NCBI GenBank assembly: GCA_964430265.1
Contig: CAYSEI010000002.1
Span: 20,769 to 84,768, forward strand
DNA: 64,000 nucleotides
Origin: an uncultured Pseudomonadales bacterium
GTDB taxonomy: Bacteria; Patescibacteriota; Microgenomatia; UBA1400; CAYXSR01
Direction: 5' to 3'
In this document: positions 24,194 through 49,959 of the stretch, one piece after another
How positions within the stretch are numbered: the stretch's first letter is position 1
How the letters are laid out: every line of letters begins with the position of its first letter
Program-made: the position numbers and the translations under genes
Notes under the pieces: model-generated
The model's input: only the letters and a program-made list of their open reading frames with translations
What the model was told of the DNA's origin: nothing
Databases searched by the model: none

Positions 24194-25129
24194 ATGGCGA
24201 AAAACAAAAGAAAAATAGATTTTATTGGAATTGGTGCGCCGCGCAGTGGTTCTACATGGCTGGCTCAATGCTTATATGAACATCCAGAGATTGAATTTCC
24301 CGGCAAAAATACTGCAAAAAAACTGCATCCTTTTGATAAGGAAATAAATTTTTTTTGTGAAACTCTTTTAAGAAGCAGTTATTCACAGAAAAATCGTTAT
24401 TCAAAAGGAATTGATTGGTATCTTAATTTATTTGATTGGAAAAATACTGAAAGAATAAGGGGAGAGTTTAGTGTAGGGTACTTTGCTGATAAAAAAGCTC
24501 CTAAAAGAATAAAAAAGCATTTTCCTAAAATTAAACTAATAGCTATTTTGAGAAATCCCGTTGAAATGGTGTATTCAATTTATCATCATCTTTGTGCTTT
24601 AGTACACACAGAAATGCCTAAGAATTTTGAAACAGCTCTAGAGCAAGAAAAATATAAAAAATTACGTCTGCATTGGGGATTGTATTACAAACAACTTTCA
24701 TATTATTTAAAGTTTTTTGACCAAGATCAGTTTTGTATTGTTTTATTGGATGACGTGAAAAAAAGTCCTAAAAAAGTTGTGCAGCAAGTATATTCATTTT
24801 TAAACGTTGAATCTGATTTTCAACCTTCGGTTTTAACGCAAAAAGAAAATCAAGCTGTGAGGCCTAATTCAAAAATCTTACAAAGAGTTGGTTATAAAAT
24901 GCTAAAAGCTACAGAGAAGCTAGGGTTTAAAAGTGTTCACAACGAATTAAGCAGAAATAGGTTTCTTAAATACATTTACAACAGATATAATCTTAAAAAA
25001 CACAAATATCCTCATTTAAAATTTCAAACAAGAAAAAAACTTTTTAAATACTATAAAAAAGATATTGAAAAACTTGAAGTATTATTAGATCGTTCGTTAA
25101 ACGATTGGCTAAAATATAAAACAAATTAG
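24194..25129 (+). CDS. PAPS-dependent sulfotransferase family protein.
   Basis: 5'-PSB motif GAPRSGSTWL. 3'-PB-like LRNPVEMVYSIYHH. Confidence 0.8.
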   Translation: MAKNKRKIDFIGIGAPRSGSTWLAQCLYEHPEIEFPGKNTAKKLHPFDKEINFFCETLLRSSYSQKNRYSKGIDWYLNLFDWKNTERIRGEFSVGYFADKKAPKRIKKHFPKIKLIAILRNPVEMVYSIYHHLCALVHTEMPKNFETALEQEKYKKLRLHWGLYYKQLSYYLKFFDQDQFCIVLLDDVKKSPKKVVQQVYSFLNVESDFQPSVLTQKENQAVRPNSKILQRVGYKMLKATEKLGFKSVHNELSRNRFLKYIYNRYNLKKHKYPHLKFQTRKKLFKYYKKDIEKLEVLLDRSLNDWLKYKTN

Positions 25130-25139: not shown

Positions 25140-26333
25140 TTGTTTGCAGAAATAATAATATTTATAAGCGTCTTTTTTATTTATTATATTTTAGGCAATA
25201 ATATTAATACAGGCCACGATTTTTTTGTTCCTCTTGCAGAGGCTTTTTTAAAAGGACGGCTTTATGTTAATAAAATGGCTTATGAGTTACACGAAATGGT
25301 CTCACTGGAGGAAGTAAAAACAGGGATATATAAACAGGTTGCTGACGGAAGCAAAGGAATTTTTTATGTTATTTATCCGCCAATGCCGGCAATTTTATTG
25401 ATGCCTCTTGTTTTAATTTGGGGTCAAGATTTTAACCAAAGCCTTTTTTCCATGCTTATTTGTTCTTTGAGTTCAGTTTTTGCTTTTAGACTTTTTAAAT
25501 CACTCAATTTAAGCATAAAAAAAAGCTTTTGGCTCTTAGCTCTTTTAGTCTTTGGATCAATGCAGTGGTATCACGGAACAATAGGATCCTCTTGGTATCT
25601 TTCTTTGGCATGCGCAATGCTTTTTTTATGGATAGCAATTAGTCTGACCCTAAAAAATAAATCACTTATTTTAATTGGTTTATTTTTAGGATTTGCATAT
25701 TTATCTAGGTTTTCCGTTATATTAAGCTTTCCTTTTTTCTTGATTAACACTCAAAAATTTTGGTTTAAGAAAAAAGGATTTAAAATTAAGCCATTACTTA
25801 TGTTTTTTTCGGGAATATTTTTATGTTTAGCTATTTCTTTTTTATACAATTATTTGCGTTATGGAACAATCTGGCATATTGGATATCACTTACTTGAAAA
25901 ACGTTGGTACAATATTGCAAATGAATATGCAGACGGTTCATATAGTCTGAGTTATTGGCCTCGTCACATCAAAGCTTTATTCTGGAGTTTTCCGCATAAA
26001 ATTAATGGATTTCCCTTTTTTGAACCCAATTATCATTCAATGGCAATTTGGATAGTTATGCCGGCTGTGATTTTGGCATTTTGGGCTCCCTTTAAGAAAA
26101 AGATTGTTTGGAGTAGCTGGTTAGTAATTATTTTAATTGCCTTATCACATTTTTTTCACGGCGGAGTTGGTGCAACTCAATTTGGATATCGATATGCAAT
26201 GGATTACTTTCCATTTTTATTCATTCTTTTTGTGCAGGCAATAAAAAAGAAATTTTACTGGTGGCAAAAAGTATTGATTATATTGAGTATTATTATTAAT
26301 TTGTGGGGCGTATATTTTAGTTTCTGGAGATGA
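25140..26333 (+). CDS. Polytopic membrane protein, probable GT-C-like glycosyltransferase or accessory protein.
   Basis: About 10 TM segments. It sits in the GT-C array. No diagnostic motif was recognised. Confidence 0.4.
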   Translation: MFAEIIIFISVFFIYYILGNNINTGHDFFVPLAEAFLKGRLYVNKMAYELHEMVSLEEVKTGIYKQVADGSKGIFYVIYPPMPAILLMPLVLIWGQDFNQSLFSMLICSLSSVFAFRLFKSLNLSIKKSFWLLALLVFGSMQWYHGTIGSSWYLSLACAMLFLWIAISLTLKNKSLILIGLFLGFAYLSRFSVILSFPFFLINTQKFWFKKKGFKIKPLLMFFSGIFLCLAISFLYNYLRYGTIWHIGYHLLEKRWYNIANEYADGSYSLSYWPRHIKALFWSFPHKINGFPFFEPNYHSMAIWIVMPAVILAFWAPFKKKIVWSSWLVIILIALSHFFHGGVGATQFGYRYAMDYFPFLFILFVQAIKKKFYWWQKVLIILSIIINLWGVYFSFWR

Positions 26334-27835
26334 AAATAAACTACAAATATTTAACTTTTGAAGTGCTAATTCTAATTTTAATTCTTGGATTACCTTTGTT
26401 GCTAATGTATCAGAGTATAGGCAAAAAAGGACCAACAATTGATGAACAAAATACATATATTCCAATAGTAGAAAATTTAATTCAAGGAAATAAATATTAA
26501 AATATATCCAAGAGCTATTTTCATCCACCATTGTCTTTTTATATTTCCTCTTTGACCTCTAAAATTTTTAAAACAAAAACATCTAGAATTACAATGTTGT
26601 CTGTTTTTATAACATTAGGAGTATTTTTTTTCTATGTTTCTAAGGCTAGCTTTAATAAGCTAACGGCTTTTTTATTATTGTTAATATATGCTTGGTTTCC
26701 GGAAATTTTAGCTCATTCTCGCTTAATAACGCCTGATATGACATTAGCATGTACGACTTTTATTTATCTTTATTTCTTATATTTGCTTTTGCAAAAGCAA
26801 AACTGGAAAAGAACTTTGTTTACGGGGCTAAGTTTAGGACTGGCTTTTATAAGTAAATATACAGCTTTAATGTTGATCCCTATCTCTTTATTATTACTTT
26901 TTGTAAATTTAATAAAACCCAAAAACAATATAAAAATGAAAATTTTTAGTTTGTTTGTAGTAATAATAACTGCTTTGTTTGTTATTAATTTCAGTTATAA
27001 TTTTCAGCAAAGTTTTTCTTTACCTGAATTTGAAAGTAGAACTTTTCAAAGATTAGAATCAAATCTTATAACTAATAAATTATTAAAAACAACACCATCT
27101 TTATATTTAAAAGGCTTAGATTTTCAACTTTATCAGTCAAGTTTGGATAATAGAAGAAATTTTTTTATGCAGCAAAGATCGTCCAAAGGAATTCCTCAAT
27201 ATTTTATTGGAACTTTTTTATTTAAAACTCCTTTACCGCTGTTAATTTTATTCTCAGCTAATATTTTATTTATAATTTTTATAAGTAAGGAAAAAAACTC
27301 TTTGCATTTTTTAATTCCGGTTTTGTTCTTTTTTGTTTACTTTAGTTTTTTTAATAATTTAAATATTGGTTTTCGTTACTTACTGATGATTTATCCATTA
27401 CTTATTTTTAGTTTAGGGGAATTTTTTGATTACATTTGCAAACAAAAAAAACAAATTTTTAAAATTATTCTTTTTTTATTGATAGCTTGGAATATATTAG
27501 AAACAATCAAAATACACCCTCATTATTTAGCTTATGCTAATCAATTAGCAGGAGGACCTCAAAATGGATATAAAATTTGGGCAGATTCTTCATTAGACTG
27601 GTTTCAAGACAATGATGCTTTTGGTAGATATTTAGACAAGAAACAGATTGATATCCCAATTGATCCACAACATCCTATTTTAGGAAAATTTGCTGTAAGT
27701 GTTTTTTCAATGAATAAAGAGAATTATTACGAATATCAGTGGTTAAGAGATTTAGAAAAAAAGCCTGTTGATCAATATGGATATACATGGTTAATTTTTG
27801 ATATAACAAAAGAAGATTTAGGGAAAATAGATTAA
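26330..27835 (+). pseudogene. GT-C (ArnT/PMT_2-like) glycosyltransferase gene interrupted by a single in-frame TAA at 26498-26500. It is either a pseudogene, a sequencing error or a recoding site.
   Basis: A 56-aa upstream ORF (MKINYKYLTFEVLILILILGLPLLLMYQSIGKKGPTIDEQNTYIPIVENLIQGNKY) lies in the same frame as the 26531 ORF. Reading through the TAA gives ...GNKY*NISKSYFHPPLSFY..., which restores the canonical TM1, DE-loop and HPPL N-terminus of GT-C enzymes. The ATG at 26330 overlaps the upstream TGA stop (ATGA). Confidence 0.55.
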
Positions 27836-27849: not shown

Positions 27850-29502
27850 ATGAATAAGAAAATAAGAATACTGATACTTTTAATTTTTTTTACTTTAGGT
27901 TTAGTTTTAAGATTGTATAAATTAGGGTTAATACCGCCCGGTACTAATTGGGATGAAACAGTCGTTGGTTATACCGGTTATTCAATTCTAAAAACTGGGA
28001 AAGATGAATGGGGGAAAAAAATACCTATTTTTACTAAAGGTTTTGGTGATTATCGTTCCGCGGTATATTCTTATCTAACGACTGTTCCTATTAAGATATT
28101 TGGATTAACGCCTTTTGCTATACGGTTTCCTGCAGCTGTTTTAGGTTCAACCGGAATAATTGCCTTTTATTTTTTAATAAAAAATTTATTTGAATTTTAT
28201 AACTTAAAGGGGAAATCAAAGAATATCGCTGTTATTGGTGCGTTTTTATTTACAATTAATCCTTGGAACTTCTTTTTTAGCCGTTATGGCTTTGATGTGA
28301 GTAGTTGTTTTATATTTGGATTGTTCTCACTGACGTTTGTTTTTTTATTTTTAAACAAAAAAAAATATCTGCATTTATTTTTTTCAATTATTTTTGCTTG
28401 TTTAAGCATATATAGCTATCATAATGCAAGAATTGTGATTCCTTTTGTTTTTTTATTTTTATTTGTACAGAATTTTTCTATATTTATTAAAAATAGAAAG
28501 CAAATAGCATTAGTTTTTTTAACGGGTATTCTTTTATTTTTGCCTTTTTTGATATATGTAAAAACAGGCTTTCTATCAATAAGAACAAAAGAGCTTTCAA
28601 TATTTTCTAATTATTGGAAAAAACATGAATTAGAAAAATTACTAGTAAAAAGCACATTTTTAAGAAGTTTTGCTTTTTTTTATAAATATTTTTTTTACTT
28701 TCAGGAAATATTTAAAAATATCTTAAGAAATCTTTCTTTAAAATTTCTTTTCTTAGGAGAGGATTTACATTATCGTTTTGGAATTAAATACTACGGAAGG
28801 TTTTTATATCCTAGTTTAATTTTTTTGTTTTTAGGACTTTTCAAAATATGGACCAGGAATAAAAAATTGTTTGCTTTTTTAACATCTTTTATTTTAGTAT
28901 CTACGTTGCCAGCGGCATTAACAGTAGACAGCCCTCATCCTTTAAGAGTATATTTTCTTTTAATTCCTTTATTAATAATCATAACTTTTGGTATTTATTA
29001 TTCATTTAAAGGAAAAGCTATTAAATTTAAGCGCAGATTCTTAACAGGTGCTTTTATAGTCTATATGTTGTTTTTATCTTTATATATAAATGCTTACTTT
29101 AATTTTTTTAATGAGGAAGCGGATCAAAATTGGCAGTATTTTTATAGAGAATTAGTAGAATCTATAGATAATCAGTATAAAGATTATAATAGGATTTTAT
29201 TTGATATTCATTGGGGACAACCACATATATTTATGTTTTTTTATCAAAAAATAGATCCTTTAATTGTACAAAAAGAAATGAACAGAAAGGATCAGCTTAG
29301 CGAATCTCGTGGGGTTGTTAGCAGATTTCAAAATATTCATTTCAAAGATGTCCATGAGAGTGATATATTAAATTGTCATAATTGTTTAATAATTGAAGAT
29401 GAAAAGAGAACAAAGTTAGAGAAAAATAAAGTTGTAAAGGAATTAGAAAACATAAAACTGAATAACGGAAATACTATTTTTTGGATATATAAAACGATAT
29501 GA
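27850..29502 (+). CDS. GT-C fold glycosyltransferase, family 39/83-like (ArnT/PMT_2).
   Basis: The first loop NWDETVVGYTGYSILKTGKDEWGKKIPIF, a polytopic N-terminal half and a C-terminal soluble region. Confidence 0.7.
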   Translation: MNKKIRILILLIFFTLGLVLRLYKLGLIPPGTNWDETVVGYTGYSILKTGKDEWGKKIPIFTKGFGDYRSAVYSYLTTVPIKIFGLTPFAIRFPAAVLGSTGIIAFYFLIKNLFEFYNLKGKSKNIAVIGAFLFTINPWNFFFSRYGFDVSSCFIFGLFSLTFVFLFLNKKKYLHLFFSIIFACLSIYSYHNARIVIPFVFLFLFVQNFSIFIKNRKQIALVFLTGILLFLPFLIYVKTGFLSIRTKELSIFSNYWKKHELEKLLVKSTFLRSFAFFYKYFFYFQEIFKNILRNLSLKFLFLGEDLHYRFGIKYYGRFLYPSLIFLFLGLFKIWTRNKKLFAFLTSFILVSTLPAALTVDSPHPLRVYFLLIPLLIIITFGIYYSFKGKAIKFKRRFLTGAFIVYMLFLSLYINAYFNFFNEEADQNWQYFYRELVESIDNQYKDYNRILFDIHWGQPHIFMFFYQKIDPLIVQKEMNRKDQLSESRGVVSRFQNIHFKDVHESDILNCHNCLIIEDEKRTKLEKNKVVKELENIKLNNGNTIFWIYKTI

Positions 29503-30743
29503 AAATTTGGATAAAAACTCTAGTTGTATTTGGAATTTGTTTGCTAAGTTTATTATTGCGTTTTAAAGTCTTTCCATACAAAACTCATTGGTCGGACATG
29601 TTTTTTTGGAAGGACTGGGGAAGAGGAATACTTGAATATGGTACTAAAGGTTTTTATAAACAATTCGGCTCAGATTATCTACCATTTTATCCGCTTGTTT
29701 TGGGTGTAGTTAAAACAATTTATAATTATACACACGAACTTCTTAATATAAAAGATATTTATTACTACAAATTTCCCGCGGCAATTTCCGATATTTTTTT
29801 TGGTTATTTAATTTTTAGATTTTTAAAGGAAGTAAAGAATTATAAAGCCGGAATTTTAGGAATGATTTTATTTCTTTTTAATCCCGCTGTATTTGCAAAC
29901 TCAAGTATGTGGGGGCAAGTGGATGTGATAGGTACTTTATTTTTATTTGCCGGTTTTTATCTTTTATATAAGAAGAAATATTGGGTATCCGGATTGTTTT
30001 TGGGGTTATCTTTAGTTACTAAAGCCTTGTATTTAATAGCTATCCCGTATTTATTTTTACTATTTTTTAGAAAAGAGGATTTTTACATAAATATACATAG
30101 GAAAATTCTTAAAAAATGTTTCTTAGTTTTTCTGGGAATATTAGTTTCAATAATAGTTATTACTTTGCCTTTTGTAGAAGGTGGTCTTTTTGCAGTTTTT
30201 AAGTTTTTGTTTGAACGCTATAAGATTATTAGTGAAAGATATCCTTATACTTCAGTAAATGCATTTAATTTTTGGGGATTGGTGGAAAAAGAATTCTGGC
30301 TTTCTGATAAAAGAGGACCTTCCTTTTTGACTTATAACAAATGGGGAACACTAATTACTCTTTTATTGATTGCAGCTGTTTATATAAAAGGTTTTTTAAA
30401 TGCAATAAGAAAAAAATGGTTTTATTCTTTAGTTTTGGGGATATCTTTATTATTTTATTCCAGTTTTTTATTTTTGACCCGGATGCATGAACGGCACTTT
30501 TTTTATGTTATTCCCTTTTTAGCAGTTGCTGCGGTTATTAAGCACAGATTAATAATTGCTTATTTAATTACTAGTTTAACTTACTTATTAAGTTTGCACT
30601 TTGCTCTGGAATATTATTATCAGGCCAAAGCATATGTTTTTTCGTCTTTGCAGATCAATTTAATCAGCGGAGCCAATGTACTAGTGTTTTTTTGGTTATT
30701 GTTTGAGTTTTTACTTTTGACAAAAAATGAAAAAAAAATATAA
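29499..30743 (+). CDS. GT-C-like polytopic membrane protein, paralog A of a three-member tandem family.
   Basis: Shares YKFPAAISDIFFG, YPYTSVNAFNFW and LFLTRMHERHFFY motifs with the next two ORFs. Confidence 0.6.
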   Translation: MKIWIKTLVVFGICLLSLLLRFKVFPYKTHWSDMFFWKDWGRGILEYGTKGFYKQFGSDYLPFYPLVLGVVKTIYNYTHELLNIKDIYYYKFPAAISDIFFGYLIFRFLKEVKNYKAGILGMILFLFNPAVFANSSMWGQVDVIGTLFLFAGFYLLYKKKYWVSGLFLGLSLVTKALYLIAIPYLFLLFFRKEDFYINIHRKILKKCFLVFLGILVSIIVITLPFVEGGLFAVFKFLFERYKIISERYPYTSVNAFNFWGLVEKEFWLSDKRGPSFLTYNKWGTLITLLLIAAVYIKGFLNAIRKKWFYSLVLGISLLFYSSFLFLTRMHERHFFYVIPFLAVAAVIKHRLIIAYLITSLTYLLSLHFALEYYYQAKAYVFSSLQINLISGANVLVFFWLLFEFLLLTKNEKKI

Positions 30744-31938
30744 AAAACTTCTTATTTATTTAATAGTTGGATCAGTTATTTTAGTTATCCGCTATATTCT
30801 CAGTTTAAGAAAATATAATCTAGACATCTTAAATCATGCAGTTTGGACAGAAAAAGCCTTAGCTGATGGATTAAAAGGGTATTATAAAAGAATATATTCT
30901 CCCTATGCAGAAGCAAACTATCCGCCTTTTGCAAACCTGCTTTTTTATTTGTCACATAAAACTTATAGGATGCTAGGTTATTCCGGAGGTTTGAATAATC
31001 TTTTGGCTGCTTTTTATAAAATTCCTTTGATAATTGCTGATTTAATAATTGTTTTTTTATTGTTTAATATTTTTAAAAATAAAAAGAAAAAATTTAAAAA
31101 ATATTTTTATCCTTTCTTTTTTTTAATTAATATTGCTTTAGTTTATAACAGTGTTTACTGGGGGCAGTTGGAAAGTGTGATAACCCTGTTTTGTATGCTT
31201 TCCTTATATTTTCTTTTTAAAGAACCCAATTTATTAGCCTATGTTTTTTTTGCTTTGGCAGTTCTGACAAAACAGACAGCACTGGTTTTAACGCCGCTGT
31301 TTTTTTTACTCAGCTTAAAAAAACTTAATATAAAAAAAACAATTGTAGGAATGGGAATAATATATTTGATCATTTTTATCTTTTTTATTCCTTTTACAGG
31401 CAAAATTGATTTTTTTTATCCAGTGAGATTTTATTTGCAAACTTCAGGCGGACAACTTCACCAGAATCAAGCGACCGTAAATGCTTTTAATTTCTGGTTT
31501 TTATTAGGACAAAACAAAATTTCAGACAGCACCACCCTTTGGAAGTTGATTGATTATCGTCTGGTTTCAATTCTGATATGTTTATTATTTTTCTTGCCGA
31601 TATTAATAAAAGTATATAATAAAAAGCCTAAAATAATTTCAGTTTTTAAAGCTGCAGGACTTTTATTTTACATAGTCTTTCTTTTTTTAACCCGGATGCA
31701 TGAAAGGCATCTTTATCCTGCATTAGCGTTTTTAATTCCCGGTTTAAATTCAATTATTAGTCTATTATTGTATGTTATAATTTCATTTATACATTTTTTT
31801 AATATGGATTTTGTTTGGCAGGAAATGATGGCAGATCCTATACCTTCAACAATTTTTAAAGGTAAAATAATGGCAGGGATTCTTTTAGCAATGTTCGTTT
31901 ATTTTTATACAAATTTTTTGATAAGAAAAGAAAAATGA
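30727..31938 (+). CDS. GT-C-like polytopic membrane protein, paralog B.
   Basis: FYKIPLIIADL, QATVNAFNFW and LFLTRMHERHLYPAL motifs. Confidence 0.6.
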   Translation: MKKKYKKLLIYLIVGSVILVIRYILSLRKYNLDILNHAVWTEKALADGLKGYYKRIYSPYAEANYPPFANLLFYLSHKTYRMLGYSGGLNNLLAAFYKIPLIIADLIIVFLLFNIFKNKKKKFKKYFYPFFFLINIALVYNSVYWGQLESVITLFCMLSLYFLFKEPNLLAYVFFALAVLTKQTALVLTPLFFLLSLKKLNIKKTIVGMGIIYLIIFIFFIPFTGKIDFFYPVRFYLQTSGGQLHQNQATVNAFNFWFLLGQNKISDSTTLWKLIDYRLVSILICLLFFLPILIKVYNKKPKIISVFKAAGLLFYIVFLFLTRMHERHLYPALAFLIPGLNSIISLLLYVIISFIHFFNMDFVWQEMMADPIPSTIFKGKIMAGILLAMFVYFYTNFLIRKEK

Positions 31939-34406
31939 TCTTATGGGTTTTAGGTATTAGCTTCTTATTTCGTTTGTTTATTGCTCAATATGGCACTTTG
32001 CAACTGGATATGAATGCTTTTATTTATTGGAGCAACCGTCTGATTCAAGTAAATTGGACTAGTTTTTATGAAGTCTGGTGTGATTATTTACCTACGTATT
32101 TATATATTCTTGCAGGTTTAGGCTATTTAAAGAATTTTTTCGTTTCCGTTGGAATTAATCTACCGGAATTTGTAATTTATAAATTGCCTTCGATTTTTGC
32201 AGACATCGGTATGGGTTGGATGATTCATAAAATATTTAAGCAAAATAATAAAAAAAAGCTGGGAATAATTGCTGCGCTTGTTTATTTGCTAAACCCGGCT
32301 ATATTTGGCAATTCAACTTTATGGGGACAAGCAGATAGTTTATTTGCTTTTGCAACTCTATTAAGTTTTTATCTTTATTATAAAAAAAATTATTTATCTG
32401 CCAGTATGTTATTGGCGGCTACAAGTTTACTTAAACCTTTAGGATTTTTATTGGTACCAGTTTTTGTTTTTGATCTTTGGAAAAAAGAGAAAATAAAAGA
32501 AATAATCTATTCCGGTACAGTTTTTATTCTTTTTTCTTTTCTGCTTTTTTTGCCTTTTTCCAGTGGAAACATGTTAAATTTTATAATTTCTAGATTTTCA
32601 CAAACCTTTAACCAGTACCCTTATACTACTCTTAATGCTTTTAATTTCTGGCAGTTTCTTGATATGAACTGGGTTAAAGACTCGCTTAAGTTTATTGCGA
32701 TGAGCTATCAAAACTGGGGGATAATATTGTTTGCGCCTTTTTATTTTACTTTTTTAAAGCAGTTTTCCCAACAAAAAAGTATTTTTAAAAAGAGTTTAAT
32801 AATCGGTTTGGTTTTCTATTTTAATTTTTTGTTTACCACCCGAATGCATGAAAGACACTTGTTTACTGCCCTGCCTTTTTTACTGCTAGGAATGGGAGAA
32901 GATAAAACAATCGGATTTTTTTATGTTTTAGCTTCTTTAACTTACAGTTTGAACCTTTATTATGCCTGGCGTTCAATTGAAAAAAGGAATTTTGTTTTAA
33001 GCAGTTTTTTAATTAAAACACTTTCTTTAACAAACATTTTAAACGCAATGGCTTTATTTTTAAAAAATTCATTTGCTTTTATTAAAAACAATTGTGAAAA
33101 TTTATGCAGTAAAATATCTATTCTAGTACAGAGAATTGGATTAAAATCCAAACAAAAAAAATTAAATTATGAGAATATATTTTTATTAATTTTTGTTTTG
33201 TTTATTTTGTTTACCCGCTTTTATCAACTGGGTTATCCGCAAGACTATATTTATGATGAGGTTTATCATGCATTTACTGCCGGAGAAATGGCGGAAGGCA
33301 ATGTTAAAGCATGGGAATGGTGGAATAATGCACCGGAAGGCTTTGCATATGAATGGACCCATCCTCATCTTGCTAAGATTCTTATGTCTTTAGGAATCAA
33401 GGTTTTTGGTAATAATTCGTTCGGATGGCGGTTTGGTTCTGCTGTTTTTGGAACCGGAGTAATATTATTAACCTATTTGTTAGGTAAAGAAATATTTAAA
33501 AACAAAAAAATTGCTGTTGTTGCTGCTGTTCTGTTTTCTTTGGACGGAATGCTTTTAACAATGTCAAGAATTGGAATGACTGACGTTTATCTGGTATTTT
33601 TTATCCTTTTGACAATTTTATTATCCCTTAAAAAAAGAATATTTTTAGCATCCGTCAGTTTGGGAATGACAATCGGAGCCAAATGGACAGGGATTTATTT
33701 AATTCCCATAATAGGGTTAATATTAATTTGGAAGCAAGAAAAACATGACATCTTCAGTAAAAGCCTTTTAAAAAACATTTTGACATTTGTGTTTATAACA
33801 CCACTGGTTTATACAGCAACATACTTGCCTTTTTTTCTTACAGAACACACATTAACTCAGTTTTTTGAATTACAAAAAAGCATGTGGGGATATCATACAA
33901 AGCTAAAAGCAACCCACGGGTTTCAATCAGAAGCATATACTTGGCCGTTTATGATCAGACCTGTCTGGTTTTGGGTAGATTATCAAAAAAATAAAATAGC
34001 CAATATTTATAATTTAGGTAATCCTTTACTTTGGTGGAGTAGTTTAACAATTTTGCCAATATATATTTATCGTAGTATTGAAAAATATATGGAAAAAAAG
34101 AAAAAGAACATGCTTATTTTAATACCTGCATATTTTGTGTTCTGGGTTCCTTGGATTTTTTCACCCCGAGTTATGTTTTTGCATCATTATCTTCCAGCAC
34201 TGCCGTTTTTGTTTCTTATGAATGCGTGGTTTTGGGTTAAAGAGATAAAAGAATTAGTAACTGAAAATAAAACCTATTATTTAATTACCCTAACTTATTT
34301 GGCCATTATATTTATTACCTTTTTATATTTTTTACCGATTTATATAGGAATTCCTCTGCCAAAAAATCGCCTTGATTGGTGGTTTTGGTTTTCAACTTGG
34401 AAGTAA
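31935..34406 (+). CDS. Fusion protein: an N-terminal paralog-C GT-C domain fused to a C-terminal PMT-family (GT39) protein O-mannosyltransferase-like domain.
   Basis: The N-terminal half has IYKLPSIFADIG, YPYTTLNAFNFW and LFTTRMHERHLF. The C-terminal half has DEVYHAF...THPHLAKIL...FSLDGMLLTMSRIGMTD, typical of the PMT family, and a PMT_4TMC-like tail YHTKLKATHGFQSEAYTWPF. Confidence 0.75.
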   Translation: MILWVLGISFLFRLFIAQYGTLQLDMNAFIYWSNRLIQVNWTSFYEVWCDYLPTYLYILAGLGYLKNFFVSVGINLPEFVIYKLPSIFADIGMGWMIHKIFKQNNKKKLGIIAALVYLLNPAIFGNSTLWGQADSLFAFATLLSFYLYYKKNYLSASMLLAATSLLKPLGFLLVPVFVFDLWKKEKIKEIIYSGTVFILFSFLLFLPFSSGNMLNFIISRFSQTFNQYPYTTLNAFNFWQFLDMNWVKDSLKFIAMSYQNWGIILFAPFYFTFLKQFSQQKSIFKKSLIIGLVFYFNFLFTTRMHERHLFTALPFLLLGMGEDKTIGFFYVLASLTYSLNLYYAWRSIEKRNFVLSSFLIKTLSLTNILNAMALFLKNSFAFIKNNCENLCSKISILVQRIGLKSKQKKLNYENIFLLIFVLFILFTRFYQLGYPQDYIYDEVYHAFTAGEMAEGNVKAWEWWNNAPEGFAYEWTHPHLAKILMSLGIKVFGNNSFGWRFGSAVFGTGVILLTYLLGKEIFKNKKIAVVAAVLFSLDGMLLTMSRIGMTDVYLVFFILLTILLSLKKRIFLASVSLGMTIGAKWTGIYLIPIIGLILIWKQEKHDIFSKSLLKNILTFVFITPLVYTATYLPFFLTEHTLTQFFELQKSMWGYHTKLKATHGFQSEAYTWPFMIRPVWFWVDYQKNKIANIYNLGNPLLWWSSLTILPIYIYRSIEKYMEKKKKNMLILIPAYFVFWVPWIFSPRVMFLHHYLPALPFLFLMNAWFWVKEIKELVTENKTYYLITLTYLAIIFITFLYFLPIYIGIPLPKNRLDWWFWFSTWK

Positions 34407-34410
34407 AGCC

Positions 34411-35013
34411 TTAAAACATTAAACCCAGAGCCATTAATAATGCGCCACCAATAGCCAATAAAATGGTTGGTGAAACAATGCCTGCTTCCGGCATTTCTTG
34501 CTGCGGTTCTACAAACTCGGGAGAAGGAGAAGCTTGAGCAATAAATACGCTTTCTTCCGGTGTTGGTTCAGGAGTTGGAGAAGGGCTTGGGTTTGGTTCC
34601 TCTGACGGTGATAAACTGGGTGATGAAGAGGGGGATATGTTTGGCGAAGGTGTTGGTGATGGACTTGGAGAGGGGGATGGCGACGGAGAAGGATTTAATG
34701 ATGGGATTGGACTCGGTGATGGTGATGGAGAGGGGGTTAATGAGGGACTTGGATTGGGTGAAATAGATGGAGAAGGTGATGGAAGAAGAGAAGGTGAGGG
34801 GTTGGGTTGACCGACTGTAAAAGATATTTCGCAGGTTCCGTCAGCTTGGTAAAATGTTTCCGGTTCTTTGGGTGCTTCACTGACTGCTGGCTTTGGTGAT
34901 TCTTCCGGAAGTTTCTTTGATTGATAAAGTTTAAAAGCAGTATAAGCAGCAACAACTGCTAAAACAATAGTTACTGTAATAATACTAATACTTAATACTT
35001 TGTTTTTATTCAT
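34411..35013 (-). CDS. Ser/Pro-rich repeat surface protein with a C-terminal sorting signal (MPEAG-IVSPT + TM).
   Basis: An N-terminal signal anchor. A tract of about 90 aa made of (N)PSPSxS repeats. The C-terminus EMPEAGIVSPTILLAIGGALLMALGLMF. Confidence 0.65.
   Translation of the reverse strand: MNKNKVLSISIITVTIVLAVVAAYTAFKLYQSKKLPEESPKPAVSEAPKEPETFYQADGTCEISFTVGQPNPSPSLLPSPSPSISPNPSPSLTPSPSPSPSPIPSLNPSPSPSPSPSPSPTPSPNISPSSSPSLSPSEEPNPSPSPTPEPTPEESVFIAQASPSPEFVEPQQEMPEAGIVSPTILLAIGGALLMALGLMF
34560..34800. repeat. Degenerate short tandem repeats encoding the (PSPS)n tract.
   Basis: Repeated ggtgatgg/ggagaggg-type units on the plus strand. The region lies inside the 34411-35013 CDS. Confidence 0.55.
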
Positions 35014-35015: not shown

Positions 35016-36359
35016 TTAATTACCCGATTTACTATTCCAGCCACCTGCCTTACCCCAATCTGTGCATAGAGGAAATCCTTCAGTTGCACAAGCTCTGCAC
35101 TGAACAACATATTCACCTGCTCTTGACGGCACTGTTAAAGTGGCAGGAACACTTTGTCCTAGATTATCACTGTCTTCAGCAATATCTGTGGCAAATTCAA
35201 CTGTTTGTGTATTTCCTTCTTCAGTAATAAAATAACGGAAATCATAAACATTTGTAGCGTTGTAGGATACATTTAATGAATTGTGTTTACAAACCAGTTC
35301 AATTTCATCCCCAAACTGGTATTCTTCTTTGACCGGAGAATATTCTAAATTATCACATACAAAGTTTTGTTCTAGTTCTAAGGAGAGAGAATTACTACAG
35401 GCGGTACAAGCAGTTGTTGCTGTATTACAATGTCCCCCCGGATTACCGGTACACCATAAATTTTTCTGATCAAAGACATTAGCAATAACAGTATATGTGC
35501 CAGGCTTTAAATTGGAAGTATCCCAAGTAACTTGGTTATCAGATTCATTAGGATCAGAAATTTTCTGCCATGAAGCCTTGCAAAAATCTCCGGTATCAGT
35601 AGTGTAATGAAAAGTTGTTTTTTGCAATTGACCTTCAGGATCACTGATGGTAGCAGTAAGCAATTTTTGATTGTCTCCTTCACCTGTGTTTGTCACACTT
35701 AAGTTTGTACAGTCAGGTGGTTGATTTGCAGGAGGTTCTATCCACATCCACCAAGTTTTAAGATTTTTTTCTTGATTATGACTATGGTTAAAACTAAAGC
35801 AATCTAAATAGTTATCATCATCATTGTCTGGAGTTTCCCATCCAGGATCCCAGGAATAGTCACCTCTTTTGGCATTAAGATCACCTTCATTGTCCGCACA
35901 TAACCACCAAAATCCTTCTTCAGAGTTTTCGGCTGCTGAAGGTGGAGCATATCTGCCTATTTCAGAACGCATGGGATGAAGATAAGAGCGACTACCCCCA
36001 CAGGAAAAATCAGCATCACCATCTTCGTAAAATCTTCCATCTTCATTTGTTTGTTTTAGTTTACACCACTGGGTATCACTGCAAGCATCCTCATTTTCAT
36101 AACCGCCACAACCTCCGTCTGTATTAGTTTTATCTTTATTTAGCATCATAAACTTTTCATCAGTAATTGGAAAAAAGGTTTCTGTTGCATTATCTTTATT
36201 CTTCATTAAGTTGGTATCGCATTTGTTTACACAGTTTGCTGCTCCTTCTTTACAAATCCATGCCCATCCGGTCCATTCCCAATAAGCAAAAGCAGAATGA
36301 GGTTTAAATATGAAAAAGAAGAAGATTAAAAAAAATGGTAAGTATCTTAATTTTTTCAT
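35016..36359 (-). CDS. Secreted Cys/Trp-rich protein with an Ig-like domain. Possibly an adhesin.
   Basis: A signal peptide MKKLRYLPFFLIFFFFIFKPHSAFA. About 28 Cys residues. An Ig/PKD-like segment NLKPGTYTVIANVFD. Confidence 0.6.
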   Translation of the reverse strand: MKKLRYLPFFLIFFFFIFKPHSAFAYWEWTGWAWICKEGAANCVNKCDTNLMKNKDNATETFFPITDEKFMMLNKDKTNTDGGCGGYENEDACSDTQWCKLKQTNEDGRFYEDGDADFSCGGSRSYLHPMRSEIGRYAPPSAAENSEEGFWWLCADNEGDLNAKRGDYSWDPGWETPDNDDDNYLDCFSFNHSHNQEKNLKTWWMWIEPPANQPPDCTNLSVTNTGEGDNQKLLTATISDPEGQLQKTTFHYTTDTGDFCKASWQKISDPNESDNQVTWDTSNLKPGTYTVIANVFDQKNLWCTGNPGGHCNTATTACTACSNSLSLELEQNFVCDNLEYSPVKEEYQFGDEIELVCKHNSLNVSYNATNVYDFRYFITEEGNTQTVEFATDIAEDSDNLGQSVPATLTVPSRAGEYVVQCRACATEGFPLCTDWGKAGGWNSKSGN

Positions 36360-36360: not shown

Positions 36361-37530
36361 TTATTTAATTCTTTTTATTAAGTAATAACAACTGATATAT
36401 ATATCATCATTCACTTCAATATCATCGTCTAAATATTCACCGTCATAAACAGGAGCTATTTCGTATTCACCTATATTCATTGTTTTTGCTGTGTTTTTTA
36501 ATTCTTCATTTTGGCTATTATAAGAGTCGTTCCCGATATTTTCTTCAAAAGCAACAGTATAATCACTATTTTGAGAAGTTAATTCTTGTTTTTTTTGCTC
36601 ACAAAGTTCAGAAAAGTTTTCTCTGTTTTCAGCTTTTTGTTTAATATCTTCCAATACGTTTTGAGTTTCTTGTTTTAATTGTTCTACCGGACTTATTGGT
36701 GGTTTAACGTTCCAAAAGCATATTCGACATTGATCTACCCAGGCAGAGCTTTCATCAACAGTTTTTGTTTTGATTAAAGCTGGATCGGCTTGAGATATTG
36801 GTTTTACTTGCTTTTCACTTTCTTGTTCTTGTTGAGAGTCTTCTTTTTGTTCTAAAGTATTATTCTGATTTTTATTCTGAGTTTCTTGAATATAATTTTC
36901 ATTTTTACTGAATAAGAAAGAGAAATTCATTTTGTTTTTTAAAATAAAGAAAAAAATTGCAATTAAAATAAGAGTTATTAGTAAGGGTAATAGAAAAATA
37001 ATTTTAGGTATACCTTTTGATTTTTGTTTTTCAGGTGTTTTAATATCATTTGGGGAAGTGTTATCGTTGTTCTGAATTTTGTGTGGTTTCTGAGGTGTTT
37101 CTAATTCCTTGTCTTGATTACTTTGTTTATCAGGTGATATTTTGTCATTTTGTATATTGTTTGATTCTGTTTTTGAGGTTTCCGGATTTTCCTTTGGAAC
37201 AGTAGAATCAATTCCTTCTTTTTCAATTTGTTTATCTACAAAGTTATTAGATACACTTTTATTATTAATAGGTTTTGTTACTGGTTCTGAGTTTTTTTTG
37301 CTCTTGTTTGATTTTTTTTTATTATGCCCTTCCGATGTTTCAGAGTCGGTTTTATTAGTAGAATTATCAAATGTATTTTCCATATTTTTATTCATAGGCT
37401 TAGGAGGCTCTGTTATTTTTTGCCCATTATCTGGGTTAGATTTTAGACTTGAATTTATTGCTTTCTGTGCCTGCTCTTCAAGATTAGATAATGAGTTATT
37501 TGAATTATTTGTTTCTTTTTGTTTATTCAT
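36361..37530 (-). CDS. Low-complexity N/K/Q/S/E-rich protein with a single central TM helix.
   Basis: A central IPKIIFLLPLLITLILIAIFFFILK helix. The compositional bias creates an antisense ORF, which is rejected. Confidence 0.5.
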   Translation of the reverse strand: MNKQKETNNSNNSLSNLEEQAQKAINSSLKSNPDNGQKITEPPKPMNKNMENTFDNSTNKTDSETSEGHNKKKSNKSKKNSEPVTKPINNKSVSNNFVDKQIEKEGIDSTVPKENPETSKTESNNIQNDKISPDKQSNQDKELETPQKPHKIQNNDNTSPNDIKTPEKQKSKGIPKIIFLLPLLITLILIAIFFFILKNKMNFSFLFSKNENYIQETQNKNQNNTLEQKEDSQQEQESEKQVKPISQADPALIKTKTVDESSAWVDQCRICFWNVKPPISPVEQLKQETQNVLEDIKQKAENRENFSELCEQKKQELTSQNSDYTVAFEENIGNDSYNSQNEELKNTAKTMNIGEYEIAPVYDGEYLDDDIEVNDDIYISCYYLIKRIK

Positions 37531-37542: not shown

Positions 37543-38976
37543 TTATTGCTTTTTATAACTTTGCTTGTCAATTGAAAAAGATATAAATGACCCTCCTGCA
37601 AGTAAAATTAATCCAAAGATCAGTGTAAAAAATGTAGGACCAACAATTCCAGTTTCTGGAACACCACTATCTGTTGCAGGCATAGTGGCTCTGCTATCTG
37701 GTGATGGAGAGGGTGAAGGCTGAGGACTAGGTGATGTTTGAGCAGATGGGGTAGCTGTAAACTCGGGTTCATTTTCGGATGTTTCTAATATTTCAAAACT
37801 ACGGCTAATATTTTTTTGTGATCCACTATCGTCAATATATGTAATAGAAACACTATTCCTTCCGGTTGTAAGATTTTGACTTGGCTGAAACTCCCAATTC
37901 TTCTCTTCATTAATAGTTACAGTTTTAACAATTTCAGGGTCTTCAATTTCAACTGTTAAGACTTTTCCGACTGGTCCAGTCCCTCTAAATCTGGGTTTTT
38001 GCGTTGATAATTTTTGATTTGCTTCCGGATAAGTTATTTTTACTGAATTAATTGTCTCCCCTGAGTTATCAACGGGATCTAGAGGAAAGCTTTCAGGGGT
38101 TTGTCCTCCAGTTTCTGGTTGTTCCTGCTCTGATTCACTGGGAACAACGTTCTCTTCGTTTTCGTTTGGCTTAGCTGCTAGTTGATTGTTCTCATCAGAT
38201 TCCGGAGTTTCTGTAAAATTATAAGAAGCTTGTGCAAGGTTTATTACTTGAGGTAAAGGGGAAATATTTCCAGAACTTGCAATTATATCCGTTTTTTGTT
38301 CTCCGCCAAAAACCTCTATACTAATAGTAGTGTTTTTTTCATCTATTATTGCCCAACTGCCTAAATCTTTGCTGCGGCTTTTATTAAGCATAAGTACCCA
38401 TCCACCTTGTTTGTCACTTAAGGTTGCTTGTGGTGCGCTGTTAGGAGTAGTTAAAACAACAATTGCTCCTTCAGCAGGAGATTTGTCTTGATTAATAATA
38501 GTTCCGCTTGCCATTTGTGCTTTTCCCGGACTTCCTAAGGACGGACCGGTAACAATTTCATATGAAGATCCTTCATTATCATATAAGTTTTCTTTGATCC
38601 CTGTTCCTGCTCCAATTTTAAAATAATATTTTTTTTCCGGTTCCAAGTTTTTAATAGTTGCCAGATGGGTTTTAAACTCACTTTTTTCTCCGCTTTGTTC
38701 ATCACGATTATCGTTTGCAACTTGATCCAGTTTTGACGGGCTCTCGCCGTATTTGATAAACCCGACTTCAGGCTTATCTGTTGTCCAGCTAACGGTAAAT
38801 TCATTATCAGTAACTGAACTTATACGAATGTTTTTAGGAGATGAGGTTGTGGTTGGGGTAATATTTTTTAAAAAAGAATTCTTTCCCAAGATAAAAACTG
38901 CAACTGCAATACCAGCAGCTAAAATTGAAAGCCCAATAAGAGTGGGAATTCTTTTTTCAAAAAAACTTTTATTCAT
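37543..38976 (-). CDS. FN3-domain surface protein with a C-terminal sorting signal (VPETG-IVGPT + TM + KKQ tail).
   Basis: The start is taken at MNKSFFEKRI (internal Met, 8-nt overlap with the upstream gene). An FN3-like block ISSVTDNEFTVSWTT...YYFKIGAG. A PSPQPSPSPSP linker. The C-terminus GVPETGIVGPTFFTLIFGLILLAGGSF...KQSYKKQ. Confidence 0.65.
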   Translation of the reverse strand: MNKSFFEKRIPTLIGLSILAAGIAVAVFILGKNSFLKNITPTTTSSPKNIRISSVTDNEFTVSWTTDKPEVGFIKYGESPSKLDQVANDNRDEQSGEKSEFKTHLATIKNLEPEKKYYFKIGAGTGIKENLYDNEGSSYEIVTGPSLGSPGKAQMASGTIINQDKSPAEGAIVVLTTPNSAPQATLSDKQGGWVLMLNKSRSKDLGSWAIIDEKNTTISIEVFGGEQKTDIIASSGNISPLPQVINLAQASYNFTETPESDENNQLAAKPNENEENVVPSESEQEQPETGGQTPESFPLDPVDNSGETINSVKITYPEANQKLSTQKPRFRGTGPVGKVLTVEIEDPEIVKTVTINEEKNWEFQPSQNLTTGRNSVSITYIDDSGSQKNISRSFEILETSENEPEFTATPSAQTSPSPQPSPSPSPDSRATMPATDSGVPETGIVGPTFFTLIFGLILLAGGSFISFSIDKQSYKKQ

Positions 38977-39436
38977 TTTGATCTTCGCTTTCTGTTTCTT
39001 GTTCAGTATTTGATTCGTTAGTCTCTTCAGTCTCATTTTGATTTTCCGTGTCTTCCTCTGCTAGTGTTTCCTCTTCTCCTTCTTGTTGATTGTTTTCTGT
39101 TTCTGCTTCTGCTTTGTTGTTTTGTTCTGCACTTGGAGAAGAACTAAGATCTATAAATTCGCTTGAGGCAGTAGATTCCTCATTACTGAGTTCCAGGTTT
39201 TCTATGGAAACAAGCTGTTTTACTGTATCCAATTTACCTTCGGTGATATGTCTTTTTTGTTTAAGTGTGTCAATTGTTGTTGTACTGAGTTTGGGATCTA
39301 TGGGTTTAATTAATTTTTCCACATCTTCTGGTATTTCAGGATTTGTCAAAGTAATATAAATTTCCAATCCAACCCAGATGAAAATTGTGATAAAGGTTAG
39401 GATAGCAGCAGTAATTATTTTCTTATTTTTTTTCAT
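38969..39436 (-). CDS. Bitopic protein with an N-terminal TM helix and an acidic low-complexity ectodomain. Possibly a PilP-like pilus accessory protein.
   Basis: An N-terminal TM anchor. An E/T/N-rich C-terminus. A 4-nt overlap with the PilO-like gene. Confidence 0.45.
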   Translation of the reverse strand: MKKNKKIITAAILTFITIFIWVGLEIYITLTNPEIPEDVEKLIKPIDPKLSTTTIDTLKQKRHITEGKLDTVKQLVSIENLELSNEESTASSEFIDLSSSPSAEQNNKAEAETENNQQEGEEETLAEEDTENQNETEETNESNTEQETESEDQNE

Positions 39437-40053
39437 TTTTCATACCAATATAAGTAACCGGTTATATTTAATTTTAGTATATTTTGATCAGAAGTGTCTT
39501 TTGAAGAAAAAGAAAAACTTTCTAATTGATAAATTCGTCGTAAATTTTCAATTTCGGAAATAAAATTTACCAGGTTTTGATATTCACCACTAGCTATGAA
39601 AGTATAACTAAGTTTATTGAGTTTAGATTCTGTTTGTTCTATATTAGAAGATTGAATTGCCTGAAATCCTTCTGTTGATCCAGTTTCTAATGCTACACTT
39701 TGTTCTTTTGCTAAAAGTGCGATTTTTTTTAAAGCAGAAATAAAATAGATTTTTTCGGGCAAGGCTTCGTTTAAATAAATAAAGTTTGGTTTTAATAAAT
39801 TATAATTTTTTTCAGCCTCTTCCAATTGACTAATTTTTGTACTAAATTTCTGACTGATTTCTTGCTTTCTTTTTATTTTGTTTTGCAGATCAGCAATTGT
39901 TCTAACAGTCGGTCTAATGGCGACTAAAGTGAAAAAAGAAATTACAAATAGGGTTAAAGCGATTTCCAATGTTGCTTTAGTAATCGGGTTTTCATAAACT
40001 CGACTTATTTTATCTAAATATCCTTGTGTGTATTTTTTGTAATCCCAGTCCAT
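39433..40053 (-). CDS. PilO-like type IV pilus assembly protein.
   Basis: A short cytoplasmic N-terminus, a single TM, a coiled-coil segment and then an alpha/beta domain. It lies immediately downstream of a PilN-like gene. Confidence 0.45.
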   Translation of the reverse strand: MDWDYKKYTQGYLDKISRVYENPITKATLEIALTLFVISFFTLVAIRPTVRTIADLQNKIKRKQEISQKFSTKISQLEEAEKNYNLLKPNFIYLNEALPEKIYFISALKKIALLAKEQSVALETGSTEGFQAIQSSNIEQTESKLNKLSYTFIASGEYQNLVNFISEIENLRRIYQLESFSFSSKDTSDQNILKLNITGYLYWYEK

Positions 40054-40054: not shown

Positions 40055-40639
40055 CTATTCTTTTAAGTTTTTACTTTCTAAGTTTATATTAATAATAAAG
40101 TTAATTTTAGGGTCTTTTTTACCGCCAGAAGTAATATTTTCTAAACTGATTTCTTTAAATTGTTCTTGCTGTTTAAGTCCTTCAAGAAAAATCTTTAGTC
40201 CTTGTGTAGAAAAAGAATACCCGTTAATAATAATAGTATCAGCTTTTTTTTGCAGGTCTGTAAATACGATATCTTTGGGAGTTACCTTTGCAACTTCTTG
40301 AGGAAGTAAAGAAAGGTGCAAGTAATTAGAGTGTAGATTTTCGATTTCTTCAACTCTTTTCTGAGTATTCAGAAATTCCTTTTCAAAGTCTGCATAGGCA
40401 ATTACTGTTTCTTTTTTTGATTTAATTATTTGGTTAAGTTCTTTGTGTTCCAAATCTAATTTGAAACGGAACAAAAAACAGGCTACAGCTACTAACTCTG
40501 TAAATATAATAATATAGCGACCAATTTGAATTGCCCACTTTATTATTCTTCCACCTAAGGTTTTATCCAAACCTGTTTTTGGTACTAGATTGATTTCTTT
40601 ATTTCGGGCAGTATTCACATCTCTAGTATAAGGAGTCAA
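40055..40639 (-). CDS. PilN-like type IV pilus assembly protein.
   Basis: An N-terminal EINLVP motif (PilM-binding INLLP-like), a TM helix and a periplasmic coiled-coil with a C-terminal domain. Confidence 0.5.
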   Translation of the reverse strand: MTPYTRDVNTARNKEINLVPKTGLDKTLGGRIIKWAIQIGRYIIIFTELVAVACFLFRFKLDLEHKELNQIIKSKKETVIAYADFEKEFLNTQKRVEEIENLHSNYLHLSLLPQEVAKVTPKDIVFTDLQKKADTIIINGYSFSTQGLKIFLEGLKQQEQFKEISLENITSGGKKDPKINFIININLESKNLKE

Positions 40640-49774: not shown

Positions 49775-49959
49775 ATACGGAAAGTACAGAATTTTTATTT
49801 ATGTCTTTAATACTTCCAAGTTTGTTTGGTTTGACTTTAATTGGAGAGGGACTTAATAAAATTCTTAAGAGTGAAGTAGCTGGATGGGTAAGCGTTATTA
49901 TGGGGATATTATTTATCATTGTGGTTATGTTTGCTTACAATATGATCACTCATATATAA
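49771..49959 (+). CDS. Small two-TM membrane protein (62 aa).
   Basis: Hydrophobic helices. A 4-nt overlap with the Fic stop. Confidence 0.3.
   Translation: MNTESTEFLFMSLILPSLFGLTLIGEGLNKILKSEVAGWVSVIMGILFIIVVMFAYNMITHI

Follow-up and report, generated by a model that had tools for sequence, protein, structure and literature searches.

The 64,000-nt stretch analysed here (contig CAYSEI010000002.1, positions 20,769 to 84,768 of the forward strand; hereafter the window) carries a gene for an 823-amino-acid (aa) protein that joins two membrane glycosyltransferase modules of the GT-C class, a GT87/PIG-M/ALG6-like module followed by a GT39 (PMT) module. This fusion gene converges on a gene run that encodes surface proteins with proline/serine-rich (PS) tracts, and a preliminary description of the window had proposed that the two form a protein O-glycosylation system together with mucin-like substrates. 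The window has ~31% GC, and its gene content and homologues identify it as Candidate Phyla Radiation (CPR)/Patescibacteria DNA of the Woesebacteria/Microgenomates type, from an uncultured, ultra-small bacterium that is not an actinobacterium. The features on which the argument turns are listed below by position, strand and identity, with the basis of each call.

29499-30743, plus strand: stand-alone paralogue of the N-terminal module (no Pfam match; shared motifs, 30% identity)
30727-31938, plus strand: second stand-alone N-module paralogue, GT87-like (Pfam GT87; overlaps both neighbours)
31935-34406, plus strand: fusion gene, two GT-C modules (823 aa, open reading frame (ORF) call)
31935-33134, plus strand: N-terminal GT-C module, aa 1-400, GT87/PIG-M/ALG6-like (AlphaFold2 (AF2), Foldseek, profile, conservation)
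33135-33179, plus strand: inter-module linker, aa 401-415 (basic, predicted cytoplasmic)
33180-34406, plus strand: C-terminal GT39 (PMT) module, aa 416-823 (Pfam, conservation, Pmt1 alignment, Foldseek)
33255-33260, plus strand: DE motif, D441-E442 (invariant in homologues)
34411-35013, minus strand: 200-aa stalk protein with N-terminal transmembrane (TM) segment, PS tract, MPEAG and C-terminal TM segment (translation, motif positions)
37543-38976, minus strand: FN3/Big_13 surface protein (Pfam fn3, Pur_ac_phosph_N, Big_13)

A GT39 module fused to a GT87-like partner

A PMT-like fusion ORF had been called at 31935-34406 in the preliminary description, and the ORF is present there, with the Pfam PMT and PMT_4TMC domains in its C-terminal half; the assignment of the product as a GT39 enzyme with a fused GT87/PIG-M/ALG6-like partner is solid. 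A database search returned at least 855 homologues of the fusion (E<=1e-10), and the best 120 of them are 769-882 aa long and align over 92-100% of the query. Since these homologues are full length, the fusion is a conserved family of proteins rather than a product of misassembly. Scanning genomes with the single sequence recovered no related loci, and an alignment was needed as query; with it, relatives were found encoded at 315 species-level genome loci. At two of them, L074 (Daviesbacteria) and L079, the N and C modules are separate adjacent genes, a Rosetta-stone relation between the two modules. The identical order, N-type module and then GT39, is found in proteins of 914-1271 aa from other lineages, the CPR fusions (~770-880 aa) being shorter. 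In an exact-sequence look-up, the cluster of the fusion had neither name nor accession.

That the C-terminal half belongs to the GT39 family is very probable. Pfam PMT (PF02366) matches residues 419-601 with 61.9 bits against a cut-off of 22.7, and PMT_4TMC (PF16192) matches residues 640-822 over its full model length with 110.8 bits against a cut-off of 32.4. Residues D441, E442, R499, K583, H654, H661, R745 and H751 are invariant in the 120 homologues, and alignment of the C half with yeast Pmt1 (E 1.6e-17) brings the DE motif and R499, the equivalent of Pmt1 R138, into register with the Pmt1 segments FDEVHF and MRFFSA. The alignment skips Pmt1 residues ~290-474 and Pfam reports no MIR match; the C module is without MIR domain. 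The top Foldseek matches are yeast Pmt4 (9i5k, E 1e-12) and Pmt1/Pmt2 (6p25, E 8e-10 and 2e-9), and an equivalent of the EL4 beta-hairpin lies at residues 677-693, with the flanking P676, Y692 and P697 conserved.

The N module, modelled alone, reaches a mean predicted local confidence (pLDDT) of 94.8 and a predicted TM-score (pTM) of 0.91 in AF2, and its fold is closest to ALG6 (query-normalised Foldseek score, TMq, 0.71), followed by GPI-MT-I (0.68) and PimE (0.62). Its signals diverge among CAZy families: Pfam points weakly to GT87 (PF09594, 19.1 bits over residues 99-216, under the cut-off of 25), the N-module profile run against Protein Data Bank (PDB) sequences finds GPI mannosyltransferase 1 (GPI-MT-I, GT50; E 2.7e-7) and not PimE, and the nearest fold is the GT57 enzyme ALG6. 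The modelled fold is that of the GT-C class that uses polyprenyl-monophosphate-hexose donors, a class within which it does not discriminate between GT57, GT50 and GT87. Among relatives, the GT87 Pfam score rises to 39.4 bits in P0182 and is ~23 bits in other fusions; phmmer, run with a GT87-scoring relative against PDB sequences, found no match.

Conservation in the N half extends to Y51, P53, K83, D90, N126, W130-G131-Q132, D134, K167 and R303-H305-E306-R307, all invariant in the 120 homologues, and the predicted first outer loop holds D25, also invariant, and D50, nearly so. The N-module family comprises 3700 representative clusters, either as stand-alone proteins of ~400 aa or N-terminal to GT39 in proteins of 800-1270 aa, and D25, D90, K167 and R303-H305-E306-R307 are invariant across the fused, split and stand-alone forms. 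Two stand-alone paralogues are encoded immediately upstream of the fusion, at 29499-30743 (30% identity to the N module) and 30727-31938 (27% identity; GT87 29.5 bits against the cut-off of 25), and the DYLP and TRMHERH motifs are common to both paralogues and the N module.

Within the whole-protein AF2 model (pLDDT 92.6), each domain is confidently predicted and the linker region, residues 397-410, falls below pLDDT 50 and is disordered; residues 401-412 include four K/R and no D/E. Helix positions and charge distribution indicate ~12 TM segments in the N module and, together with the K/R-rich, predicted cytoplasmic linker, would place the catalytic loops of both modules on the outward side of the membrane.

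PS stalk proteins beside the fusion and their conservation

The preliminary description had the fusion gene converge on the gene at 34411-35013 and gave the latter about 90 residues of PS repeats, and both statements hold. The stop codons lie at 34406 on the plus strand and 34411 on the minus strand, with a 4-bp gap between the genes, and the tract spans 87 residues (aa 69-155, nt 34549-34809) that include 34 Pro and 30 Ser. Such a tract arose in 0 of 2000 random 200-mers drawn from the amino-acid composition of the window, and part of it is underlain by a weak 42-nt tandem periodicity. Beyond the tract, MPEAG (nt 34480-34494) precedes a TM segment, with no basic tail. An exact-sequence look-up gave no entry for the 200-aa protein in the collection.

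The FN3 protein has the PS linker attributed to it earlier, ...TSPSPQPSPSPSPDS..., at aa 424-455 of the 497-aa ORF (nt 37672-37767). The linker is followed by VPETG (nt 37648-37662), a TM segment and, 12 residues on, a basic tail ending ...KQSYKKQ. A start at 38976 (MNKSFFEKRIPTLIG) matches the N-termini of homologues (MKK..IPTILG) better than does the start of the longest ORF at 39036. These two proteins are the only ORFs with a PS tract in the 64-kb window. Both end in putative sortase-type sorting signals, and the FN3 protein has all three parts of an LPXTG-type signal (xPxTG-like motif, hydrophobic segment, basic tail). The motifs of relatives take the forms LPx[A/S]G and [V/L/I]Px[T/S]G; an NCBIfam scan of the whole PS proteins returned no sorting-signal family at E <= 0.01.

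Conservation of the locus was assessed on 80 of the 315 species-level loci (L001-L080), which were retrieved and subjected to ORF calling and BLAST, PS tracts being counted at >=20 aa. The gene order of the related loci is femAB-femAB-uvrD; LCP-(membrane protein)-(GT-C)-fusion; small PS protein, 340-570 aa protein, FN3 protein, small protein, pilO, pilN and rpsT; and murJ-hrcA. FN3 homologues occur in 63 of the 80 loci and pilO/pilN in 60-61. PS tracts are concentrated in the interval between fusion and pilO, where 149 of 280 ORFs contain one, against 3 of 907 elsewhere in these loci, and in 63 of 77 loci the distance from the fusion to the start of a downstream PS-tract gene is within 1.5 kb. 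Sorting-type signals follow the same distribution (132/280 ORFs between fusion and pilO, 17/1089 elsewhere). Co-occurrence of the PMT homologue with PS proteins in relatives, which the preliminary description had named as a check, is therefore positive within the Woesebacteria-type clade (~77 genomes).

The small PS proteins of these loci make up a family in which the N-terminal anchor, LAGVAIFTAxRLYQLRQ, is conserved and the P/S/T tract, 20-131 aa long, is hypervariable; LPx[A/S]G and a TM segment follow. The tracts employ Ser in some genomes and Thr in others; tract sequences are not conserved, whereas the stalk architecture is, and proteins of this same architecture lie directly downstream of the fusion in most related loci. 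At L042 the fusion has a PS-rich LPxAG protein on either side, one of 450 aa upstream (tract of 131 aa) and one of 382 aa downstream (tract of 105 aa), which suggests a local duplication retained beside the fusion. Many of the related metagenome-assembled genome records among L001-L080 are labelled 'uncultured Gammaproteobacteria' or 'Pseudomonadales', yet they have the Woesebacteria-type gene order and the fusion, and these labels are probably wrong.

The two converging gene runs and other genes of the window

Five GT-C genes stand in a row (two of PMT_2 type, two N-module paralogues and, at the end, the fusion itself), the last four of which (27850-29502, 29499-30743, 30727-31938 and 31935-34406) have overlapping start and stop codons and hence form an operon. 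In the minus-strand run that meets the fusion, rpsT, pilN and pilO come first, followed in this order by the genes for the 155-aa acidic-tailed TM protein, the FN3 protein, the 389-aa low-complexity TM protein, the 447-aa Cys-rich protein and, last, the stalk protein; both PS genes are members of this pilN-pilO surface-protein operon. The remaining members of both runs, together with a distant glycosyltransferase gene discussed below, are as follows.

23147-24175, plus strand: LytR-CpsA-Psr (LCP) protein, head of the envelope gene run (Pfam LytR_cpsA_psr, E 2e-34)
24194-25129, plus strand: sulfotransferase, between the LCP and GT-C genes
25140-26333, plus strand: polytopic membrane protein with a YPPMPAIL loop motif (no Pfam or NCBIfam family)
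26531-27835, plus strand: PMT_2-type GT-C glycosyltransferase (Pfam PMT_2, E 2e-15)
27850-29502, plus strand: PMT_2-type GT-C glycosyltransferase (Pfam PMT_2, 34 bits; 4-nt overlap with the next ORF)
35016-36359, minus strand: Cys-rich secreted protein, 447 aa (signal-peptide-like N-terminus, no Pfam match)
36361-37530, minus strand: 389-aa single-TM protein with a long low-complexity N-terminal region (same slot as the 'middle' 340-570 aa proteins of related loci)
38969-39436, minus strand: 155-aa TM protein with an acidic tail (small proteins occupy the same slot of related loci)
39433-40053, minus strand: pilO (Pfam PilO, E 6e-10)
40055-40639, minus strand: pilN (Pfam PilN, E 7e-11)
40671-40907, minus strand: rpsT (Ribosomal_S20p)
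56425-57186, minus strand: 253-aa GT2 (Pfam Glycos_transf_2)

An LCP homologue lies upstream of the fusion in 65 of the 80 related loci. Homologues of the polytopic protein at 25140-26333, which is probably another GT-C, occur in 52 of them, always between LCP and fusion; they are encoded on the opposite strand there and on the strand of the fusion here. The sulfotransferase has a homologue in 0 of the 80 loci and looks like a lineage-specific insertion in the envelope locus. On the minus strand, the C-terminal CRxC...WG motif of the 447-aa protein recurs in relatives (L003 and L007). Two other identities considered for this side of the locus were rejected: the PS proteins are not type IV pilins, their N-termini having no G/FTLIE-type prepilin signal, and the operon is not the CPR Pam pilus system, whose context is ATP synthase and corB and whose description includes neither glycosylation nor PilO. 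Both gene runs are flanked by femAB, uvrD, murJ, lepA and hrcA.

The 253-aa GT2 matches generic GT2 enzymes, including the archaeal Dol-P-Man synthase 5mlz (E 1e-11), and is a weak candidate for a polyprenyl-phosphate-hexose donor synthase. On either side of it, within 55289-58326 (minus strand), are two MGDG-synthase/GT28-like genes, so that this group could be a glycolipid cluster or could include a polyprenyl-phosphate-sugar synthase. A second polyprenyl-linked glycan gene cluster is located at 11842-17161 (minus strand) and consists of a UbiA-family prenyltransferase, a GT4 (MraY/WecA-like), a small membrane protein, a PMT_2 GT-C and a 495-aa membrane protein with no Pfam family.

Elsewhere in the window, a 707-aa protein encoded at 813-2936 (plus strand) has a Beta_propel domain (PF09826, E 4e-108); a beta-propeller protein also features in the mycobacterial Pmt system (see below). 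The region 6818-10770 (plus strand) encodes a DUF134 protein, a Nitro_FeMo-Co (NifX/NifB-like) protein, a cation-efflux/Nitro_FeMo-Co fusion and two tandem MinD/ParA ATPases with 4Fe-4S ferredoxin inserts, a gene content unusual for a reduced genome. At 48701-51750 (plus strand), hrcA-grpE-dnaK-dnaJ is directly followed by a Fic/DOC protein with a DeoR-type helix-turn-helix, and then by an ATP-dependent DNA ligase of the archaeal/eukaryotic type.

Proposed substrates of the fusion and the cell surface

By analogy with characterised GT39 enzymes, the C module would take a hexose, probably mannose, off a polyprenyl-phosphate donor and attach it to Ser/Thr of proteins, acting at the outer face of the membrane on unfolded, Pro-rich segments of exported chains. 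The N module may pack on the GT39 module as a built-in partner, comparable to the mycobacterial Pmt-GT87-like pair and to yeast Pmt1-Pmt2, and would itself probably add the next sugar, because every invariant polar residue of the stand-alone paralogues is kept in it; those paralogues and the PMT_2 enzymes of the same operon may lengthen the glycan further. The likeliest acceptors would be the Pro/Ser/Thr stalks of the convergent operon, namely those of the FN3/Ig-like protein and of the 200-aa protein, which has little beyond a membrane anchor, its PS stalk and a sortase-type signal. Glycosylated and anchored to the wall, such proteins would together make up a surface layer resembling mucins or mannoproteins. 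That the fusion has these neighbouring proteins, with their PS stalks and sortase-type signals, as its substrates is biochemically plausible and draws on synteny among loci that are not independent of one another; we give it a probability of about 0.5.

Almost all work on bacterial protein O-mannosylation by GT39 enzymes concerns Actinobacteria, where its purpose is still described as 'enigmatic' (PMC12757957, PMC11727336), and our literature search found no paper linking GT39 with Patescibacteria. The action of actinobacterial PMTs on Ser/Thr/Pro-rich linkers, from which the preliminary description had argued, has precedents: MtPMT selects Pro-rich S/T peptides through its EL4 beta-hairpin (PMC12331936), actinobacterial GT39s load Cellulomonas-type S/T linkers with up to 65 hexoses (PMC11727336), and the GT39 gene of C. 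bescii lies near that of its own Thr/Pro-linker substrate (PMC6151902). In mycobacteria, Pmt (GT39) starts O-mannose chains that the GT87 enzyme PimE is reported to elongate (PMC12757957). A preprint of July 2026 (10.64898/2026.07.15.738315) further describes a GT87-like protein, the Rv0051 homologue, as pulled down by M. smegmatis Pmt, models the pair as a Pmt1-Pmt2-like heterodimer whose partner has no catalytic residues, positions a periplasmic beta-propeller protein (ML0810c/Rv3212) over the Pmt active site in mycobacteria, and notes that bacterial PMTs are without MIR domain. The same preprint reports Paenibacillus GT39s translationally fused to a GT87 enzyme (e.g. UniProt V9WAU2), so that the kind of fusion seen here had already been noticed.

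Compared with the actinobacterial system (Rv1002c, PimE and Rv0051-type proteins), the CPR enzyme shares a GT39 module without MIR, with DE motif and EL4 beta-hairpin, and a pairing of GT39 with a GT87-like GT-C, and the PS stalks beside it are of the Pro-rich Ser/Thr kind that the known enzymes prefer. It differs in being one polypeptide, GT87-like module first and GT39 second, in keeping the conserved polar residues of an N module whose mycobacterial counterpart is reportedly inactive, in its ~31% GC CPR host and its low score against the actinobacterial Pmt family model (below), and in that no beta-propeller or DivIVA-like partner was identified beside the fusion. The Paenibacillus fusions, as the preprint describes them, likewise join a GT87-family module to GT39; the fusions of the other lineages sampled lack the conserved PS-stalk context of the CPR ones. 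C. bescii Cbes_1864 offers a non-actinobacterial GT39 near secreted proteins, such as CelA, whose Pro-rich Ser/Thr linkers it glycosylates (PMC6151902), but Cbes_1864 is a single-module protein of 556 aa and its substrates are secreted cellulases rather than sortase-signal stalks. Yeast Pmt1-Pmt2 and Pmt4 are the closest solved structures to the C module, pair GT-C units side by side and act on stalk-like, heavily O-mannosylated wall proteins (a Pmt4-Ccw5 entry is among the Foldseek matches); they carry MIR domains and both partners are GT39, whereas the CPR fusion has no MIR domain and its partner is GT87/PIG-M/ALG6-like. In Actinomyces oris, the sortase substrate GspA is glycosylated in an LCP-dependent manner before wall anchoring (PMC6381275), and a conserved LCP gene heads the CPR locus; the A. 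oris glycan is transferred by the LCP protein (LcpA) and not by a GT39.

Several observations weigh against the PS proteins being the particular substrates of the fusion, and most of them would equally be expected if the enzyme were a protein O-glycosyltransferase with its real substrates elsewhere (lipoproteins or wall hydrolases, as in mycobacteria), the PS tracts serving as wall-spanning spacers and the adjacency being inherited. The tracts end a median of 13 residues ahead of the sorting motif, the usual wall-spanning position in Gram-positive surface proteins, so that their presence needs no glycosylation to account for it. Being convergent, fusion and PS genes are not co-transcribed. The functionally unrelated uvrD, rpsT, hrcA, murJ and lepA are syntenic in the clade just as the PS genes are; since the whole block is syntenic and the 80 loci are related rather than independent, adjacency alone is no proof of functional coupling and may be inherited gene order. 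In the Daviesbacteria-type relatives L074, L075 and L079, the fusion or split pair stands in other contexts with no PS neighbours, and a PS-tract neighbour was found beside none of six GT87-like-GT39 fusions of other lineages (five such lineages; most of the contigs short), which argues against adjacency as a general rule. Two of these six fusions have a GT2 gene immediately downstream and one has the same kind of upstream GT-C array; a ~312-aa GT2 gene directly after the fusion, as at L083 (3137-4078) and L087 (10286-11224), is where one would look for a donor (polyprenyl-phosphate-sugar) synthase paired with its GT-C. The score of the C module against the actinobacterial Pmt equivalog NF058602, 92.9 bits against a cut-off of 800, makes it a member of the GT39 family and not an orthologue of the studied enzymes. 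No clear polyprenyl-P-mannose synthase was found in the 64-kb window, only the generic GT2, and a motif search and Pfam scans of essentially all its ORFs >=120 aa found no sortase gene; sortases are reported to be near-ubiquitous in Microgenomates (PMC6744442). Against substrates elsewhere stands the preference of every bacterial GT39 studied for extracytoplasmic, disordered, Pro-rich Ser/Thr tracts, which would make PS tracts hard to keep unmodified next to an active enzyme, and the rarity of such tracts in the rest of the sampled flanks leaves few alternative acceptors in view. We consider the spacer explanation rather unlikely. Of the system originally proposed, the genuine GT39 module and the co-occurrence with PS proteins stand, and the substrate link is plausible and goes no further, given the convergent genes, the syntenic block and the adjacency lost in the three relatives.

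The part played by the N module is weighed separately. It could be a non-catalytic, Pmt2-like structural partner that holds or presents the acceptor, as proposed for Rv0051/ML2687c, leaving the GT39 module to add single hexoses or other enzymes to build chains. The mycobacterial GT87-like partner is reported to be catalytically dead, so the N module may likewise not be an enzyme; the preprint reads the Paenibacillus fusion as obligatory dimerisation, and the GT87 Pfam score of the N module is under its cut-off. The pTM of 0.59 for the whole fusion, moreover, leaves the relative orientation of the modules without confident prediction, a point against the packing proposed above. D25, D90, K167 and R303/H305/E306/R307 are nevertheless kept in predicted outward loops, as in the stand-alone and split forms, which speaks for ligand binding or catalysis, and the nearest folds are active enzymes. 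Because N modules retain every invariant polar residue of the stand-alone and split forms, unlike the mycobacterial partner, we lean slightly towards an active second transferase, and regard the purely structural role as possible though somewhat doubtful. A more distant alternative is that the GT-C operon and LCP protein make a non-protein glycopolymer, similar to lipomannan or teichoic acid, with the GT39-type module working on a glycan or lipid acceptor, or that LCP attaches the surface-protein glycan as it does for GspA. The LCP gene heading the cluster in most loci, runs of up to six GT-C genes, femAB and murJ nearby, and the documented LCP-dependent glycosylation of a sortase substrate (PMC6381275) would suit such a scheme; all characterised GT39 enzymes, in turn, are protein O-glycosyltransferases, and the PMT_4TMC domain, DE motif and EL4 hairpin are all conserved here. 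We hold this alternative to be very unlikely.

If the PS stalks are substrates of the fusion, one could go further and picture Woesebacteria-type CPR bacteria as building a yeast-like 'mannoprotein' coat, in which stalk-only O-glycan carriers, modified by an initiator-plus-elongator enzyme and its operon paralogues and linked to peptidoglycan by sortase beside the type IV pilus machinery, make up the outermost, host-contacting layer of these episymbionts; we hold this extended picture to be unlikely as it stands. Bacterial protein O-mannosylation by GT39 and GT87 enzymes is already known, as are fusions in Paenibacillus; the present locus is of this kind, in an unstudied phylum and with candidate substrates of unusual simplicity. 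In a large clade of uncultured CPR bacteria with reduced genomes, GT39 stays covalently joined to a GT87-like partner, at no fewer than 315 species-level loci, and this independently supports the proposal that bacterial PMTs are GT39/GT87 pairs. The near-pure Pro/Ser stalk proteins are very simple candidate substrates that could be tested in existing heterologous systems. Should the substrate link prove false, the locus would be an ordinary envelope gene neighbourhood; should it prove true, it would give initial access to the surface glycoproteins of bacteria whose way of life depends on cell-to-cell attachment.

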